Assembly: GCA_040377305.1 (NCBI GenBank)
Contig: JBEIPA010000008.1
Coordinates: 64,001 to 128,000, forward strand
Source of the DNA: Flavobacteriales bacterium
GTDB taxonomy: Bacteria > Bacteroidota > Bacteroidia > Palsa-965
DNA length: 64,000 nucleotides
Reading direction: 5' to 3'
Below, piece by piece: positions 4,457 through 63,911 of this stretch (position 1 is the stretch's first letter; the number at the start of each line of letters is the position of its first letter). The position numbers were made by a program, and so were the translations under genes. The notes below the pieces were generated by a model that had not been told where the DNA came from, searched no databases, and was given only the letters and a program-made list of their open reading frames with translations.

Positions 4457-5920
4457 ATGCGAATCCGCAACTTGTCAGAAACAGCCATACCACCACGTTG
4501 GTTAATTGCATCTCTGCTGGCTGTCGGTATACTACTTTCAGTTTACACGATTGTCAGAGCTGTCAGGATTGAAATGACTATCGACGAGCTCCACTCACTG
4601 GAACACTACGCGAACACGTTTCAGCTTTACCCCGAGCAGTACGGAATCTGGAGTGCGAACCATCATTGGTTGAATTCTTTGAGCATGCGCTGTTCGTTGA
4701 TTCTATTCGGTGACTCTCCACTTTCCCTGCGTTTACCAAATCTGATTGCGCACATTCTCTTCCTATGGTTTACCGCCCGGATCACCTTGCGTTTGCGCGA
4801 CGATATCTTCGCGGTGGCACTATTTGCATTTCTAAATGCCCATCCTTACATGCTCGACTTCTTTTCCCTGGCGAGAGGTTACGGATTGATGTTAGGCACA
4901 ATGGCGGGTAGTATTTATTATCTGCTCTGCTTCGTCGAAAAAAAGAAAACAAAGCTTCTCGTTTACTCGCTGTTGTTCGGCTCATTTTCAGTCCTCTCGA
5001 ATTTCGTCATGCTCAACTTTTTCTTCGTCGTGCTAGCGATCATCTTCATTGCGTTCTTTGCGGACAAAGAGTTGCGCACCAAGTCAAACTTCATTTTTGT
5101 CCTCGTGTTTCCTGTCGGGCTTCTCACCCTCGTCCTTCCTCACATCAGTCAACTGCAGAGCAATGACAGCCTGGATTTTGGATTTACCTCACTTTGGAGT
5201 CAGACGATAGCTGGTCTCTGTTGGGGCATGTTGTATGATGCTCCATACGCTGGCGAAAATTCATTTGCGTCTTCTCAATTACCAATCGTAGTCCTTTTCG
5301 TCGCCGTGCTGGTTTCAGGAGTTATGTTAGTCCGCAAATACAAACTGCAAGGCTACCTGACTTCCTTCCACGGAATTGCGCTTCAGCTACTAATTGGCGT
5401 CATCGTCTTAATGCTCCTGCAATATTATGCTCTTGACTCAAGGTATCCGCCGGCCCGAAGTTCCTTGTTTCTCTTCTTTTTCTTCTTGTTGGCGATTGCA
5501 GCGTCCATTCAATTTGTCAGAGTGAATGAAATGGTCAGAAAAACTTTACTGCTTGTGTTTACTGTTCTGGTTGTCTTACATTTCTTCACTTGCTTCAATC
5601 TCCGTGGTGTTTATGAATGGAAACAAGCCAGCGGCTCACGTGATGCCATCGCCATTATTGTGAAGGAGCGTGCACAGATCAACGGTACAGGTGAAGTAGT
5701 TCTGATTTCAGGCAACATTTCAGGACCTTCACTTCGCTGGCTTGCAGATCAACAGGAATTAAACTGGCTCAGGATTATTGAACACGGAAGTGAAGAACAG
5801 CCCCCGAATGGCGACTACTATTTCGAAGAAGTACAGTTTACACCATTTCACTCCACGAATGACTGGGTTCTATTGAACGATGATCCGTTTGCGCACAATA
5901 AATTGTACAAGGCTAAGTGA
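4457..5920 (+). CDS. Polytopic membrane glycosyltransferase (GT-C fold, ArnT/PMT-like)
   Basis: DE motif after TM1 (TIDE), NH..LN, LRLP, ARGYG and many TM helices. Confidence 0.65.
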   Translation: MRIRNLSETAIPPRWLIASLLAVGILLSVYTIVRAVRIEMTIDELHSLEHYANTFQLYPEQYGIWSANHHWLNSLSMRCSLILFGDSPLSLRLPNLIAHILFLWFTARITLRLRDDIFAVALFAFLNAHPYMLDFFSLARGYGLMLGTMAGSIYYLLCFVEKKKTKLLVYSLLFGSFSVLSNFVMLNFFFVVLAIIFIAFFADKELRTKSNFIFVLVFPVGLLTLVLPHISQLQSNDSLDFGFTSLWSQTIAGLCWGMLYDAPYAGENSFASSQLPIVVLFVAVLVSGVMLVRKYKLQGYLTSFHGIALQLLIGVIVLMLLQYYALDSRYPPARSSLFLFFFFLLAIAASIQFVRVNEMVRKTLLLVFTVLVVLHFFTCFNLRGVYEWKQASGSRDAIAIIVKERAQINGTGEVVLISGNISGPSLRWLADQQELNWLRIIEHGSEEQPPNGDYYFEEVQFTPFHSTNDWVLLNDDPFAHNKLYKAK

Positions 5921-6007
5921 ACTTTTCAAAAGTTGAGCGAAACTGCCGATTGCAACCGCTATGAACCCAGGCTTCAATCGAGCCCTCATCAAACTTTGGA
6001 AAAGTTT
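5920..6007. repeat. REP doublet (REPIN-like) downstream of RAYT
   Basis: AACTTTTCAAAAGTT (5920-5934) and AAACTTTGGAAAAGTTT (5991-6007). Confidence 0.75.
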
Positions 6008-6009
6008 TG

Positions 6010-6621
6010 CTAATATTCCTCATCATCAAGCGAAGGCGGCAACTTGTGAAAAGCTCGAAAATTCTCTGCGTTGTCAAACCAATCAATCACTTCCTGTGCA
6101 CACTCGGAATGACCAGCCAGAATTGCATTGTAAGAAGATTGCATCCAGCCTTCAGGGCTATCGCTCAAGCCTGCTTCAACCGGGTTATTGTGAATATAAT
6201 GTACCAGCTTTTTCAAAAACGAGTCAACCTTCACGTGTTTTCGCTTGAAGTTCTTCATAAACAAGCTTCCCATTCGGAACTGTTGTTTATTAAAAGACTG
6301 GGTATAAGAACTAAAGAGGTTACTGAACTGTTTGCTGATAAACTTCTCCGGATCAGTTTTAAACTTAACTACTAACTGCTCTCCGTTCGTTTCCATGGAT
6401 TCCAGATAAAGAGAGATTTCTTCGATGCTCTTCACTTGAATTAAATAATGAATATGATTCGGCATTAAGCAGTAACAATACGTCTTCACAAATGGACCGA
6501 TGTAATGCTTGTACTTCGCTTCGAAGAATACATAGTTATTCTTCGTCAGAAATATTTTCTCAGAACCGTTCGCACGATTGTAAACGTGGTAATAATGTGT
6601 GGGCTCAAGCGGGATCATCAA
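6010..6621 (-). mobile_element. REP-associated tyrosine transposase (RAYT, HUH Y1_Tnp family)
   Basis: YHVYNRANG, CLMPNHIH (HUH), YIHNNPVEAGL (catalytic Tyr) and SSY motifs. Palindromes flank both sides. Confidence 0.88.
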
Positions 6622-6692
6622 ACGAAACTAGGAAATAAACGAAGACGGTTGTGCTGAATAATTCGCTTATGCCACCTGGTTATTTCCTCGAT

Positions 6693-6778
6693 AACTTTTC
6701 CAAAGTCCGATGAAGGCAAACATCCAGCTTTGGGTAATCTCGTTCGAATCAAGTTTATCGCCCAACTTTGGAAAAGTT
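6693..6778. repeat. REP doublet (REPIN-like) upstream of RAYT
   Basis: AACTTTTCCAAAGT (6693-6706) and AACTTTGGAAAAGTT (6764-6778). The unit is a diverged inverted homologue of 5920-6007. Confidence 0.75.
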
Positions 6779-57471: not shown

Positions 57472-60105
57472 TTACTTCCCACCATACCTATACCCCATAC
57501 TCGCCCTACTCTTCTCCTCCTTCACCACAAACTCCGCCACATCTTCCAACGCCAACGTATGCAACACTTCCTTCGTTCGCTTGTCTGAATCCATTGCAGC
57601 CATTCGTAAGTGCTGGTTCTTCACTGCTTCGCCGATGATCTGACGAACGGAGCGCGCGTTACCGAAATACTTGTCGCGGTTGGTGTAAAGCTGACCGAGA
57701 TAGCTCTGCAAATGTTCGAGTGCTGCAGGTGAAGGTGTAAGTCCTTCTTTTTCTAGCAGGGAAAGTGCAATGGTGTAAAGCTCGTCGGCCGTGTAGTCCA
57801 TGAACTCGTAGTGACGATCGAAACGCGATTTCAATCCCGGGTTGGCTTCGATAAAATCTTTCATGTTGTCCGGATAACCTGCAACGATGACACCGAATTT
57901 GCCCCGGAGATCTTCCATCTTTTTCAGGATGACCTGAATGGCTTCTGCACCGAAACCATGTGACGTATCGCTATTCGCAAGTGCGTATGCTTCATCGATG
58001 AAGAGAACTCCACCTTGTGCTTCCTGAATCCGTTCCGCAGTTTTGATTGCAGTTTGTCCGACGTATCCGGCAACGAGTCCTTCACGATCAACTTCTACCA
58101 CGTGACCTTTCTCAACGAGACCAAGTCCTTTGTAGATTTTGCCGATGATACGCGCAACAGTTGTTTTTCCTGTTCCCGGATTACCAGTGAAGATCGCGTG
58201 TAATGAAAAACGATTCATCACTTCTTTTCCGGTCTCGCGGTAGAAACGAACCAACTTCACGAGCTCGCTAACTTCAGCTTTGATGTTGCTCATCCCAACC
58301 AGTGCATTGAGTTCATCAAGTGCTTCCCGCAATAATTTCTCGTTGATGCCAATCTCAATCTTCTTTTTCGCTCTGCCACCGAATGCTTTTTCAACATCGG
58401 CAACGGTTAACGTGCTCAATGCGTCGTTATCCATCGTTGCAACATCACCGGCCTGCATCAAACGCAAAGCCATATTCATCTTGGCAGATTCAACAACACC
58501 CAACGCCATACGTGCATTTCCGAAAGTGCGATCACGTGTACGATAAGCTTCGATAAACGCTTCCTCCAAAAACTTAATCGCGTCTTCGGCTAGCTTCACG
58601 CCTTTCTTCAGTGTTCCTGAAGTGGCGATCGCGAGAAGTTCGTCTGGCGTATAATCTTCAAACTCATAGTAGTGAGAGAAACGCGATTTCATTCCGGGAT
58701 TCGAATCCAAAAATGCTTCCATCTCCTTCGGATAACCTGCGCCCATGATAGCAATATCACCTGTGCCGTCCGACATTTCCTTCAGAAGTATTTCGATTAC
58801 TTCTTTTCCGAAATCTTTTGAATCGTCACCTGCACGGGCAAGTGCATATGCTTCGTCAATGAAAAGTATGCCACCTTTCGCCGACTCAATAATTTTCTTT
58901 GTCTTCGGTGCTGTTTGTCCGATGTATTCACCCACAAGATCTGCGCGATCAACTTCCACCACATGTCCTTTCGAAAGCAATCCCATTTTCTGGTAAATCT
59001 TTCCGAGCATATTCACCACGGTAGTCTTTCCTGTTCCCGGATTACCAGTGAAAACACTATGCAGATTGATTTTGCCGCTCTCTTCAAATCCTTTTTCCTT
59101 ACGGACTTTTAAGAAGTTGAGATAGCTGATGTGATCGCGAACACTTTTCTTGATGTTGGTTAATCCGATGAGAGAATCCAGCTCTGCTAGCAACTCTTCC
59201 ATCGTCTTCTCTTCAACAGTTGCTTCGGCCTTCTTCTCCTGCTCGCCAGTTTCTCCACCAGCAGCAGATTTCACCAGCATTTCATTTCCAGTCAACAACT
59301 CCGGGTTGCCTTCCACATCGACATTGCTCACATCGAAACGTACCTGGGCCACGAGCGTATCCATGAAAAGTACTTCCACAAAATACACATCGTCTTTCCA
59401 GGAACCTGCAGTTGCATTTCCCCAGCCAACATCGAATGTGTATTTGTAATCTTTCTTTGCCTTATCGACTTTTCCTTCACGCTGCACTTGTCCTTTCAAT
59501 TGGTGCGCATCATCGAGAAAATTGAACGTGAGTTCATACTCCCAATCCATCTCGCTCTTGTTCGCGATTTCCATTTCAGCCCACACGTATTGCGTTTTAT
59601 CGCGATTGATCTGCTTCAGGTAAACACGATCTTTACTCTCCCATCCGTTAAAATCACCGGAGTAGAGTTTCAAGTGATTCACTTTGAAATACGGATTGTA
59701 CTCTTTCGTCACCTTCCCGATTTCATTCACCACGAAACGGGTTTCAGCAGCTTTCTCACTGTCAATCCACGCCTCCCAAATGTATTCACCCTTCTTCCAA
59801 TACACACCTTCTTTCGGATTGCCCCAACCATCGCGCATGTATACGATGTTTTCGTCCATCTTTATCTCGCGTTTTGTATCGAGTGAACAAATTTCTTTCC
59901 GCTCCACTCCCAATATTTCGAAACACTTGAGAATGACAGTGCACTCCCAGGTTTCTTCATCGAACAATTTATTGTAGAACGAAAACTCGCAACGAACATA
60001 CGCGAGCTCTGCTTTGTCGAAAATCTTACGATACTTCTTGGTCGAATTCGCCATCCACTCATCAGAGGAGAATGTGCGCATTTCTTTTACTTTATATTTC
60101 TTCAC
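57472..60105 (-). CDS. Double AAA+ ATPase of the CbbX/SpoVK/EccA clade with a duplicated N-terminal beta domain
   Basis: Two copies of L..L.G...IK, H.(V/I)FTGNPGTGKTT, LV..Y.GQTA.KT, GG.LFIDEAYAL, AGYP..M..F...NPG.KSRF and FGNAR. Confidence 0.92.
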   Translation of the reverse strand: MKKYKVKEMRTFSSDEWMANSTKKYRKIFDKAELAYVRCEFSFYNKLFDEETWECTVILKCFEILGVERKEICSLDTKREIKMDENIVYMRDGWGNPKEGVYWKKGEYIWEAWIDSEKAAETRFVVNEIGKVTKEYNPYFKVNHLKLYSGDFNGWESKDRVYLKQINRDKTQYVWAEMEIANKSEMDWEYELTFNFLDDAHQLKGQVQREGKVDKAKKDYKYTFDVGWGNATAGSWKDDVYFVEVLFMDTLVAQVRFDVSNVDVEGNPELLTGNEMLVKSAAGGETGEQEKKAEATVEEKTMEELLAELDSLIGLTNIKKSVRDHISYLNFLKVRKEKGFEESGKINLHSVFTGNPGTGKTTVVNMLGKIYQKMGLLSKGHVVEVDRADLVGEYIGQTAPKTKKIIESAKGGILFIDEAYALARAGDDSKDFGKEVIEILLKEMSDGTGDIAIMGAGYPKEMEAFLDSNPGMKSRFSHYYEFEDYTPDELLAIATSGTLKKGVKLAEDAIKFLEEAFIEAYRTRDRTFGNARMALGVVESAKMNMALRLMQAGDVATMDNDALSTLTVADVEKAFGGRAKKKIEIGINEKLLREALDELNALVGMSNIKAEVSELVKLVRFYRETGKEVMNRFSLHAIFTGNPGTGKTTVARIIGKIYKGLGLVEKGHVVEVDREGLVAGYVGQTAIKTAERIQEAQGGVLFIDEAYALANSDTSHGFGAEAIQVILKKMEDLRGKFGVIVAGYPDNMKDFIEANPGLKSRFDRHYEFMDYTADELYTIALSLLEKEGLTPSPAALEHLQSYLGQLYTNRDKYFGNARSVRQIIGEAVKNQHLRMAAMDSDKRTKEVLHTLALEDVAEFVVKEEKSRASMGYRYGGK

Positions 60106-60164
60106 GAAAGCGGGTTTTAAGAAAGATGAAATTAAGAAATAGATCGTGAATCTGGATGGAAAAA

Positions 60165-60366
60165 GGAACGCGGATTTTGATGTGCTTTTGGTGTTAGCGG
60201 TGTGCTCGGATCTGTGTGGTAGTTAGATCGTTTCGGTATTGGATTTTATGAGATAAGCCCAAAGTATAGCGAGTTTATCTCATTAGATCCAAATACAAGC
60301 TGAAGTATACACCGCAGTGATCCGAGATCAGTACTAGAAAACAACGAACATAAAAATCCGCGTTCC
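60165..60366. repeat. 202-bp imperfect hairpin element 1 (arm A1 60165-60257, arm B1 60275-60366)
   Basis: Terminal IR GGAACGCGGATTTT/AAAATCCGCGTTCC, middle CTCGGATC/GATCCGAG and inner ATGAGATAA/TTATCTCAT. Confidence 0.92.
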
Positions 60367-60378
60367 CATGGCCACGAT

Positions 60379-60756
60379 CTAGGCCATGCGGCTCACATAA
60401 TGACTTCCGAAATCAGTCAGAGCCAATTCGGGACATACACCCTTCTTCCAGTGAAAAGAGCCGTCTTTTTGCTTTGCCAAATTCTTGTGGAGTCCTCCAA
60501 AATCGTAGAGGGAAGGAAACTTGCTTGTTGTGGGAGCGTCATACCGAAGTTCCACATATCCCGTCCTCAAGAGCTGCTCTACGGCTTCAGCCATGCGCTC
60601 TGCCAGCATGATCGTATCCGGATTTGTTTGATTGTTGAACAAGGTTGTGTACAACACCGAAACAGGCAAACAACCGCCACCTTCGTTACGCAACCATCTT
60701 AAGATCTGGCGCTGAAGGGTGGTGAGACGATTGAGTTCGGGTTGAATCTGCTTCAT
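60379..60756 (-). CDS. Small hypothetical protein, winged-helix-like
   Basis: LT..Q..IL..L start, L...GYVE and terminal LT..G pattern. TATCTTAG lies 4 nt before the ATG. Confidence 0.6.
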   Translation of the reverse strand: MKQIQPELNRLTTLQRQILRWLRNEGGGCLPVSVLYTTLFNNQTNPDTIMLAERMAEAVEQLLRTGYVELRYDAPTTSKFPSLYDFGGLHKNLAKQKDGSFHWKKGVCPELALTDFGSHYVSRMA

Positions 60757-60788
60757 GCCGCTAAGATAGTGATGCGCTGGAGAAAAAA

Positions 60789-61219
60789 GGAACGCGGATT
60801 TTGATGTGCTTTTGGTGTTAATGGTTATCTCGGATCAGCGCAGTGCATAAAAGATTTCGGTATTGGATTTTATGAGATAGGTTTGCTAGTGCAAGGCAAT
60901 AAAAAAGGAACGCGGATTTTGATATGCTTTGGTGTTAGCGGTTATCTCGGATCAGCGCGGTGCATAGAATCATTCGGTATTGGATTTTATGAGACAGGTT
61001 TGCTAGTGCAAGACTACAGAATAGGAACGCGGATTTTGATGTGCCTTTGGTGTTAGCGGCTGTCTCGGATCAGCACGGTGTATAGAACGTTCCGTTATTG
61101 GATTTAATGAGATAAGCCTAACAAGTCTATCTCATAAGATCCAATTCTCAGTCGAAGTATTTACCACAATGATCCGAGAGCAGCATTAGAAAACAACGAA
61201 ACACAAAAATCCGCGTTCC
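60789..61219. repeat. Tandem array of arm A (60789, 60907, 61024; period 118/117 bp) ending in 196-bp hairpin element 2 (B2 61128-61219)
   Basis: Each unit reads GGAACGCGGATTTTGAT.TGC..TTGGTGTTA...CTCGGATCAGC...TTGGATTT.ATGAGA. Linkers begin GGTTTGCTAGTGCAAG. Confidence 0.93.
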
Positions 61220-61230
61220 CTTCCTAACTT

Positions 61231-62892
61231 CTACTTCGTAATGCCCGTGATTGGAGTACCCGTACACCCATTCGGACTCTGAATGTTCAGCATCAAACAA
61301 AGCGTTGGAGCAATGTCTTCGATGTAAACGGGCTCATCCGATTTTCCGTTCTGAACTTTCCAGCCCCACCAGTAAAGCGGAACGTGTGTATCGTATGACC
61401 ACGGAGTTCCGTGAGAAGTGCCTGTGCTGCGGTGCCAATCCGATAACCAACCTGGATTGAGAATTATTGCAACGTCACCTGAGCGACGGAAATAAAATCC
61501 TTTTTGCACAAGATGCTTCGGGGTTTCGTTGTATTCGTTGGCTGCGAGATCAGTTGAAGTCATGGTCGATGCAACACCGGGAAAACGCATGAGGAAATTA
61601 GCAACGTAGCGCTGAAGTTCTTCCTGCTTGATTCCTTTTGCTTCCATCTGTTTGTGATTGAAGTACACCTGGTCGTTCGCAATTCCCCAAACGAGTGTAT
61701 CACCGTATACGCGTTTGAGATTTCTCTTGAGGGAATCTTCTACAATGTCTTCACGAAAAAATCCACCTGGAATTCCAGCGTCAATGAGAAACTGGGGATT
61801 TTCAACAGCGCCATGATCTGCAGTAAGGAACACAAGTGCGTTGTTTTTCCCAACCCAGTTGTCAATGAACTTCAGAAAATCTGCAAGCTCTTTGTCCATG
61901 CGCAGGTAACAATCTTCAACTTCAATGCTCTGTGGACCGAACATGTGTCCGATATAATCGGGTGAAGAAAAACTCACTGCAAGAAAATCCGTGAACTTTC
62001 CTTTGCCGAGATTTTCTGCCTGAATAAGAGCTTGTGCAAAATCGCGCGTGTATGTATTTCCGCCGGGAACAGCGCGAATCAATCCCAGATTTCCATTCTG
62101 CGCTTTCAGTGAAGGAATATTGTGCGGAAAAGTGGGTGATGTTTCTCCCTTCCACATTCCTTCGTAGGGCGAATTATCCGGAAGACTTTCCGTGTACTGT
62201 TCGATCGGCAGCAACGTTGTCCATTGTGTCGAAAGATATTGCTCAGGTAATTTCCGGCTGTTGAATTCATTGACCCACGTAGGAAGTGTAGTCATATAGT
62301 GCGTGCTCGTTACAAAACTTCCGGTCGAACCGTCGTACCAATAAGCAGCATTAGCAGTGGGTCCAGCAGGAAGAATTGCCGAACGATCCTTCAACGCAAT
62401 TCCGAAAACTTTTGATCCGTTGTTTGATGCCAGATGAAGTTGCGATCCAACTGTTGTGGTGAGCAAACGTTTCGGTGAGCGTTTTCCTTCATCCGAACCT
62501 GTGCCAACACCTTTCACGCTTTCATCCTGAACACAGTAAACCGATCTTCCGGCTTCACGATCAAGCCAATCGTTCGCGATAATTCCGTGTACCGCCGGAG
62601 TTGTCCCCGTGTAAATCGAAGCGTGACCCGGACCCGTGTACGTTGGCATGTAATTGTAATTCGTGTTGCGGCACTCGTATCCTTGCGACAACATACGTTT
62701 GAATCCGTCGGTACCGAGTTTGTCCCAATAGCGGTAAACATAATCGAAACGCATTTGATCCAATACGATTCCCACTACCAGTTTTGGTTGAGCCGGAACA
62801 ACTGCCGGAGCTGGTGGTGGATTCTTTTTCGCCTGCGCAGCGAATGCAAGAATGATAAACAATGCGGGAATGAGTACGAGTGCTTTCTTCAT
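61231..62892 (-). CDS. pafA: PafA-type alkaline phosphatase
   Basis: PKLVVGIVLDQMR, TYTGPGHASIYTG (Thr nucleophile), KDRSAILPAG, DYIGH, LTADHG and HG.PWSYDTHVP. Start ATG 62892. Confidence 0.9.
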   Translation of the reverse strand: MKKALVLIPALFIILAFAAQAKKNPPPAPAVVPAQPKLVVGIVLDQMRFDYVYRYWDKLGTDGFKRMLSQGYECRNTNYNYMPTYTGPGHASIYTGTTPAVHGIIANDWLDREAGRSVYCVQDESVKGVGTGSDEGKRSPKRLLTTTVGSQLHLASNNGSKVFGIALKDRSAILPAGPTANAAYWYDGSTGSFVTSTHYMTTLPTWVNEFNSRKLPEQYLSTQWTTLLPIEQYTESLPDNSPYEGMWKGETSPTFPHNIPSLKAQNGNLGLIRAVPGGNTYTRDFAQALIQAENLGKGKFTDFLAVSFSSPDYIGHMFGPQSIEVEDCYLRMDKELADFLKFIDNWVGKNNALVFLTADHGAVENPQFLIDAGIPGGFFREDIVEDSLKRNLKRVYGDTLVWGIANDQVYFNHKQMEAKGIKQEELQRYVANFLMRFPGVASTMTSTDLAANEYNETPKHLVQKGFYFRRSGDVAIILNPGWLSDWHRSTGTSHGTPWSYDTHVPLYWWGWKVQNGKSDEPVYIEDIAPTLCLMLNIQSPNGCTGTPITGITK

Positions 62893-63254
62893 GATGCTTT
62901 TTTTGTCAGCACAGCGAGGATGATCATGCAAAGCGAAATGCTCAGCAGAATATTTCCGGCTGCGAATAAATAATTTCCTCTTCGGAATAATTCCAATGTC
63001 TCGAAACTGAACGTGGAGAACGTACTGAAGCCTCCGCAAAAACCAATGATGACCAATGCACGCAACGATTCGCTTTGCATTTTCTCAGCGAAGAATCCGA
63101 GTGCGAGTCCCATAACAACAACACTGGCAACATTAGAAATCAACGTTGCCATTGGGAATTGTTGTTCGGGTGTAGCCAAAATCATCTTCGACACCCCGTA
63201 TCTGGTTATGCAACCGATTCCGCCACCGATGAATATGAGCAGGAGGTTAAGCAT
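62889..63254 (-). CDS. crcB: Fluoride efflux channel
   Basis: GGGIG..RY, P.ATL..N and GFCGGFSTFSTF motifs. Confidence 0.95.
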   Translation of the reverse strand: MLNLLLIFIGGGIGCITRYGVSKMILATPEQQFPMATLISNVASVVVMGLALGFFAEKMQSESLRALVIIGFCGGFSTFSTFSFETLELFRRGNYLFAAGNILLSISLCMIILAVLTKKAS

Positions 63255-63843: not shown

Positions 63844-63911
63844 GTTCCCTGTTTCCGGTTCCCTGTTTCCGTCAAAAAATAACACACCACCGGGAACGGG
63901 GAACAGGGAAC
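63844..63911. repeat. 7-bp-period GGGAAC inverted repeat
   Basis: GTTCCCTGTTTCCGGTTCCCTGTTTCC ... CGGGAACGGGGAACAGGGAAC between divergent genes. Confidence 0.7.

Follow-up and report, generated by a model that had tools for sequence, protein, structure and literature searches.

Dispersed long-armed hairpin repeats associated with a GxxExxY gene in a Flavobacteriales genome

Introduction

REPIN-RAYT systems combine hairpin doublets, singlets and arrays of short repeats with a single-copy, syntenic RAYT gene, as described in excerpts of two reports (PMC3116915; bioRxiv 10.1101/2021.07.10.451892). Related arrangements are found in BIMEs and tandem REP arrays, where ordered arm arrays contain two arm types that pair within an element (PMC3116915, in part), and in prokaryotic MITEs, which are non-coding, intergenic, bounded by terminal inverted repeats and of the 50–800 bp size class (PMC11602168, in part). 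Subclasses of TnpA-REP with atypical repeats are known from Bacteroidetes, and those treated in the relevant sections of PMC6006769 are all HUH enzymes. GxxExxY/PDDEXK_3 (TIGR04256, PF13366) is a widespread protein family whose function is not known, and it is listed as 'Unknown' in a table of PMC3424549. No link of this family to repeats was found in the literature covered, most subscription journals and supplements being outside that scope.

Here we describe a repeat that shares with REPIN-RAYT systems the extragenic inverted hairpin doublets in many copies, the singlets and the tandem arrays (simple doublets make up 49 of 70 clusters), as well as a repeat cluster flanking a single-copy, syntenic gene whose clade matches the repeat type. 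This gene is a GxxExxY gene, found so in genome G000, which holds the DNA under study, in its relative G015 and in metagenome locus L156. The repeat differs from REPIN-RAYT systems in three respects. The partner has a predicted PD-(D/E)XK fold and is not an HUH/tyrosine transposase, the arms are ~95 bp long compared with 20–60 bp for REPs, and they meet with almost no spacer in an element about twice the typical ~100 bp. With BIMEs it has in common the ordered arrays and the pairing of two arm types, but its sequence is different, its unit is longer (108–118 bp) and it has no RAYT link. It resembles MITEs in being non-coding and intergenic with terminal inverted repeats in the same size class, but lacks a target-site duplication (TSD) of 2–10 bp, has an inverted repeat running through the whole element, and no parent IS was found between its facing arms. 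The repeat can be regarded as a long-armed variant of a GxxExxY-hairpin system that is analogous to REPIN-RAYT and apparently unpublished.

The repeat cluster in the window

The window is a stretch of 64,000 nucleotides on contig C60 of G000, a genome of 5.18 Mb. Its repeat cluster, the neighbouring genes and the partner gene are as follows.

57472..60105, minus strand: 877-aa tandem AAA ATPase gene, flanking, context only
60165..60259, plus strand: arm A1, ~95 bp, 5' half of hairpin element 1
60272..60366, minus strand: arm B1, completing hairpin element 1 as its 3' half; the stop codon of the 125-aa gene is 13 bp from the outer end of the arm
60379..60756, minus strand: 125-aa gene, a core gene with a predicted winged-helix-like fold (weak match), bystander between the two elements
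60789..60883, plus strand: arm A2, extra tandem arm
60907..61000, plus strand: arm A3, extra tandem arm, 89% identical to A2
61024..61118, plus strand: arm A4, 5' half of hairpin element 2
61124..61219, minus strand: arm B2, completing hairpin element 2 as its 3' half; the phosphatase stop codon is 12 bp from the outer end of the arm
61231..63039, minus strand: alkaline-phosphatase-family gene (PF01663), flanking, context only
G000:C60:144503-144901 (contig positions), minus strand: partner GxxExxY gene, beyond the window, 19 kb from B2

An earlier note on this DNA had described the arms, and its four forward starts (60165, 60789, 60907 and 61024) and two inverted ends (60366 and 61219) are exact. 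A1 and A2 are identical over a 32-bp prefix, the array periods are 118 and 117, and the common linker sequence GGTTTGCTAGTGCAAG occurs at 60880 and 60997 with no other copy genome-wide, all in agreement with that description. The same applies to the absence of a covering ORF, as the array is overlapped only by mechanical ORFs of 50 and 57 aa, and to the statement that it is no CRISPR, since the two ~22-bp linkers have a 16-mer in common and the spacers are thus not unique. The cluster was also said to bracket one small gene; this gene does lie between the outer ends of two separate elements, but not inside a hairpin.

Both window hairpins are much more stable than shuffled sequences, none of 200 coming up to them either in DNA folding (z -7.75) or in RNA folding (z -8.75), and arm B2 is predicted to pair with either A4 or A2. 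The A2-A3-A4 array may have formed by local duplication of single arms, through slippage or unequal recombination. Three further contigs were compared with this region, and the whole stretch is spanned by no single one of them. Contig X2, from another study, covers 60655-61085 gap-free and with 3 differences, X3 matches 60901-61089 without any difference, and X1, which may be the source sample, spans 60852-61800. As the tandem arms recur free of gaps in contigs of other studies, the array is no assembly artefact and misassembly was ruled out.

Closer to the end of the window, at 63844-63911, there is a separate 23-bp inverted repeat similar to the exemplar of the genome's largest repeat community.

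Dispersal and placement in the genome

The feature is real and not specific to the flagged locus, which is not special in itself. An iterated profile applied to the whole of G000 retrieved 145 arms in 70 clusters, 139 of these arms being outside the window. Besides the 49 simple arm pairs (about 193–195 bp) there are 11 lone arms, 2 tandem hairpins and 8 clusters with tandem same-direction arms like those of the window array, which bears out the proposal in the earlier note of a long REPIN/MITE-like element that amplifies single arms. Arms rarely overlap a long mechanically called ORF (4 of 145). Where a gene faces an element with its 3' end, the distance is at most 20 bp in 68 of 81 cases (median 6), and for facing 5' ends this is so in 8 of 50 (median 62).

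The absence of a TSD was confirmed in 35 complete elements, none of which has a consistent one; the longest flanking direct repeat was 0 bp in 17 elements, 1 bp in 4, 2 bp in 9, 3 bp in 3 and 4 bp in 2. Dozens of dispersed copies, which had been said to make the repeat an ordinary REP/MITE family, are indeed present. The ordinary label does not follow, because there is no TSD and because the only linked gene encodes a predicted GxxExxY nuclease, not a RAYT or transposase.

Dispersed repeats of one kind or another occur in 965 of 2586 spacers (30–600 bp) of G000 and form more than 20 communities. Many of these touch one of the 8 GxxExxY, 9 four-helix-bundle (TIGR02436) or 10 Y1_Tnp genes, which suggests that four-helix-bundle genes also have cognate repeats.

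Arm sequence and pairing

Conservation of the arm is arranged in blocks, at positions 2-13 (GAACGCGGATTT), 28/31/32, 44-47 (GGAT) and 78-91 (GAT.T.ATGAGATA). Columns 2-13 are at least 85% conserved in both arms, a terminal inverted repeat of the length expected of MITEs (at least 10–15 bp). No significant helical periodicity of ~11 bp was found in the conservation, the observed value being reached by 629 of 1000 shuffles. Overall identity among copies is ~65%; the copies are old and diverged.

Two arm types, A-like and B-like, pair within an element. The arms of a hairpin have opposite sign on PC1 in 45 of 51 hairpins, with a correlation between them of r = -0.80 (n=51). An arm matches its partner at 94% of conserved columns and 39% of variable columns, and permuted partners match better at the variable columns (45% vs 39%; higher in 501 of 501 permutations). 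Compensatory covariation between the arms was accordingly absent from the 51 hairpins, the trend being opposite. Since it is sequence words that are conserved and not base pairs, the arms would fit recognition of DNA by a protein better than a structured RNA. The idea that the array consists of ncRNAs or loading sites belonging to the neighbouring genes is likewise not supported, given the dispersal of the copies, the missing covariation and the lack of strand bias.

Arms also match their own partner worse than they match the arms of other elements (mean rank 0.18; 73% fall into the lowest quartile). This may be due to selection against long perfect palindromes or to hidden subfamily structure.

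A GxxExxY gene between facing arms

Of the 8 GxxExxY genes of G000, the one at C60:144503-144901 is bracketed by inward-facing arms of the 195-bp repeat. Facing arms more than 30 bp apart occur at four places, one with a gene-sized gap (423 bp, holding this gene) and the others with gaps of 37–106 bp, so the C60 GxxExxY gene is the only gene between facing arms. One element, at G000:C11:90407-90701, has a 106-bp loop. When all repeat-bearing spacers were clustered, a community of 59 (57 of them long-arm) touched the C60 GxxExxY gene on both sides and 0 of 26 other GxxExxY, four-helix-bundle or Y1 genes. None of the 10 Y1_Tnp matches in G000 comes closer than 2249 bp to an arm or is in contact with the repeat community.

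Two of 35 family genomes, with 33 and 28 copies, have the hairpin-centre pattern (the reversed-pattern control gave 0), and BLAST found the element in 2 of 41 relatives. Among 27 genus genomes G015 has the only close orthologue of the C60 GxxExxY protein (79% identity, others at most 59%). This orthologue is intact from an MLH start and flanked by long arms of the same type, and a protein search of the 27 genomes returned the long-arm GxxExxY clade only in the two repeat holders. A metagenome scan added 8 loci, including L156, an arm-GxxExxY-arm arrangement at the same syntenic site encoding a 78% identical protein. Of 78 rows only the proteins of G000, G015 and L156 are long-arm ones, and they group as one clade (SH-aLRT 99) in what is a quick tree only, with 6 short rows and 1 duplicate row excluded; the unpublished genome G012 enters the tallies as single rows only. 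As the three holders belong to one related lineage, the co-occurrence of repeat and GxxExxY clade is one evolutionary event and not three independent ones. The C60 gene is under purifying selection (dN 0.15–0.19, dS saturated).

The C60 protein passes the family cut-off (130.8 bits vs 35; TIGR04256/PF13366) and keeps catalytic-type residues. Its structural model (pLDDT 94) has a predicted restriction-endonuclease-like fold. Invariant residues include E27, D66, E76, K78, Q90 and Y94, of which D66, E76 and K78 make up a D...E-x-K arrangement; QxxxY is a motif of the RecB family. The best Foldseek match was SSO0001 (E 2.9e-4), a Cas4 protein, followed by LHK-Exo, MGME1, lambda exonuclease and Hjc, while VIA-align gave BpuSI (Z 8.3, rmsd 3.1, 96 aligned) with many near-ties. 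By sequence no solved relative was found, the sole match having an E of 0.75. The protein is thus predicted to have a PD-(D/E)XK nuclease fold, and a shared fold does not give the substrate.

Flanking repeats of other GxxExxY genes

Inverted repeats flank 55 of 72 other GxxExxY loci with full flanks; in the controls they were found at 0 of 62 shifted windows and at 3 of 200 small ORFs picked at random. The remaining 17 GxxExxY loci have no flanking inverted repeat at E<1e-3. A first control had given flanking inverted repeats at 8 of 120 random ORFs, and these eight included the C60 GxxExxY gene, the 125-aa gene of the window and two four-helix-bundle genes. Within G000, a script found a flanking inverted repeat at seven of the eight GxxExxY genes; that of the remaining one (C19), whose ORF start was over-extended, was recognised by eye. 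Six of the seven repeats found by script have 7–49 dispersed clusters, and the C53 seed has only 2.

Many related GxxExxY genes, in several phyla, have repeats in which the terminal word GAAC(A/G)C(G/T)GAT leads into 9-10-nt repeats. Their arms are usually short (~30–60 bp) and built of 9-10-nt words, whereas in the long-arm clade the arms measure 95 bp and the GGAT words are spaced by 36 and 33 nt. Since the terminal word is common to the short-arm relatives, the long arm looks like a stretched derivative of short-arm repeats, as judged from sequence. Single short-arm relatives with the same terminal word and 9-10-nt repeats are present in G000 at C7:71029-71074, C32:3956-3991 and C6:1399-1439, slots where G015 has a long hairpin.

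Gain, loss and copying

Forty element loci of G015 were taken from 91 motif matches, and 32 of them could be mapped on both sides to G000. The element is common to both genomes at 13 of these 32 syntenic slots and absent from G000 at 19. Exact junctions were unreadable from the filled-empty pairs of G000 and G015, because the spacers are too diverged. Tandem arrays with a 108-109-bp period at unlinked loci are 92–99% identical (G000:C35:18017-18462 vs C12:34700-35271 and C2:47767-47999), which points to recent copying or conversion. The old age of the copies at large, together with the 13 of 32 slots common with G015, implies that present activity of the repeat may be low.

The array ends on C12 and C2 (L005 and L006) probably belong to a single locus that the assembly broke in two. 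Elements of about 216–221 bp make up a second size class in G015 (loci L110-L149). Another repeat fills the slot at C43:36382-36480 and is similar to the inverted repeats visible at 5920-6778 of the window, which the earlier note took for RAYT REPs; a PF01797 search listed no match on contig C60, which carries the latter.

Origin and spread of the repeat

We hold with moderate confidence that the window contains one cluster of a dispersed hairpin repeat that owes its maintenance or spread to a cognate GxxExxY nuclease, by way of cuts and their repair by the host. In favour of this reading are the dispersal of the copies, their position just past stop codons, the missing TSD, the GxxExxY gene in a hairpin loop, the joint occurrence of the repeat and one GxxExxY clade, and the gain or loss of elements at orthologous slots. 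The enzyme would recognise the arm blocks (terminal GGAACGCGGAT, central GGAT and inner GATTTTATGAGATA) on a hairpin or cruciform and cut there, and host repair would then copy gene-less hairpins into new spacers, as is thought for RAYTs and REPINs. Mobilisation by GxxExxY is proposed by analogy with those systems. We know of no strand-transfer chemistry for a lone PD-(D/E)XK nuclease, and the 10 Y1/RAYT-type genes of G000 could act on the repeat in trans, which counts against this reading. So do the age of the copies, the single event behind the co-occurrence, the 17 GxxExxY loci lacking a flanking inverted repeat and the unreadable junctions.

GxxExxY-linked hairpins touch on the question of how REP-like repeats originate and spread outside RAYT-bearing Proteobacteria. 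In G000 an intact GxxExxY gene is found with a clearly defined putative cognate substrate, of which 145 natural variants are available with the conserved positions mapped, and the seven paralogues with different repeats are ready-made specificity controls. This makes it possible to test directly what the family does and how the repeat spreads.

A wider proposal is more tentative. GxxExxY could represent a second, non-HUH class of domesticated repeat-propagating enzyme, in which each paralogue spreads its own hairpin family by cut-and-repair copying into post-stop spacers and the families compete for slots. The 95-bp-arm clade would then be a case of enzyme and repeat changing together, with the recognition words moved from ~10-nt to ~35-nt spacing.

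Alternatively, the hairpins could be kept for an RNA-level job after stop codons, as 3'-end stabilisers, terminators or processing sites, their spread being incidental recombination; GxxExxY might then bind or cut the hairpins as RNA, or the arms flanking its gene might serve its autoregulation. A stop codon lies within 20 bp at 56 of 70 clusters, a short T-rich run (at least 4 T in 8 nt) follows the stem at 50 of 100 ends, and where G000 lacks the element, a different dispersed repeat is often present (13 of the 19 slots vs 909 of 2529 comparable spacers, 36%, the BLAST settings being slightly different), all as this explanation would have it. We nevertheless regard it as unlikely. Orientation relative to transcription is unbiased (15 vs 13), there is no clear one-strand G-U excess (435 vs 373), partner arms fall below permuted partners at variable columns (0.39 vs 0.45), and terminator-like sites are not enriched (1 found vs 1.3 expected). 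Nor did any Rfam family reach the gathering threshold; the best-scoring one, a miRNA precursor model, gave 32 bits where 144 are required.

Equally doubtful is an ordinary REP/MITE that is moved in trans by a RAYT, an IS transposase or host recombination, with GxxExxY a passenger that has no role in the spread. The 10 Y1_Tnp matches and the abundance of other repeat families in the genome (the 965 of 2586 spacers given above) are in line with it, and the window itself shows that an unrelated gene can come to have elements on either side. Against it, no Y1 gene lies less than 2.2 kb from an arm whereas GxxExxY directly abuts arms, a TSD is lacking, every GxxExxY gene of G000 has its own flanking repeat, including the one recognised by eye, and GAAC(A/G)C(G/T)GAT recurs at related GxxExxY genes of several phyla.

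The gene between the two elements

The 125-aa ORF is single-copy and was found in 25 of 27 genus genomes. In 20 loci examined, the phosphatase gene lies upstream in 17 and the AAA ATPase gene downstream in 19, and arms stand beside the gene in only 2 (G000 and G015); in the other genomes the slots around it are spacers of down to 16–56 bp or hold different hairpin repeats. Capture by the repeat, which the earlier note had suggested, is rejected for this single-copy, syntenic core gene, around which the spacers of relatives are empty or filled otherwise. The local clustering of six arms around the 125-aa gene is all that speaks for a locus-specific array of structured RNAs, or a cassette that captures genes, belonging to the AAA ATPase and the small winged-helix-like gene. 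With 139 of 145 arms elsewhere and arms at only the 2 of 20 loci, this reading is highly improbable, and it is refuted by the dispersal and the empty syntenic sites.

The protein has no match in Pfam. Its winged-helix-like fold is predicted from weak matches (best E 0.012), and its named homologues point to Bacteroidia. As a binder of the arms it was ruled out, the gene being present in 25 of 27 genomes vs the repeat in 2. Together with the gene for the 877-aa double-AAA ATPase, whose N-terminal third is unannotated, it forms a conserved pair (window 57472-60756) that is adjacent in 19 of the 20 genus loci examined.
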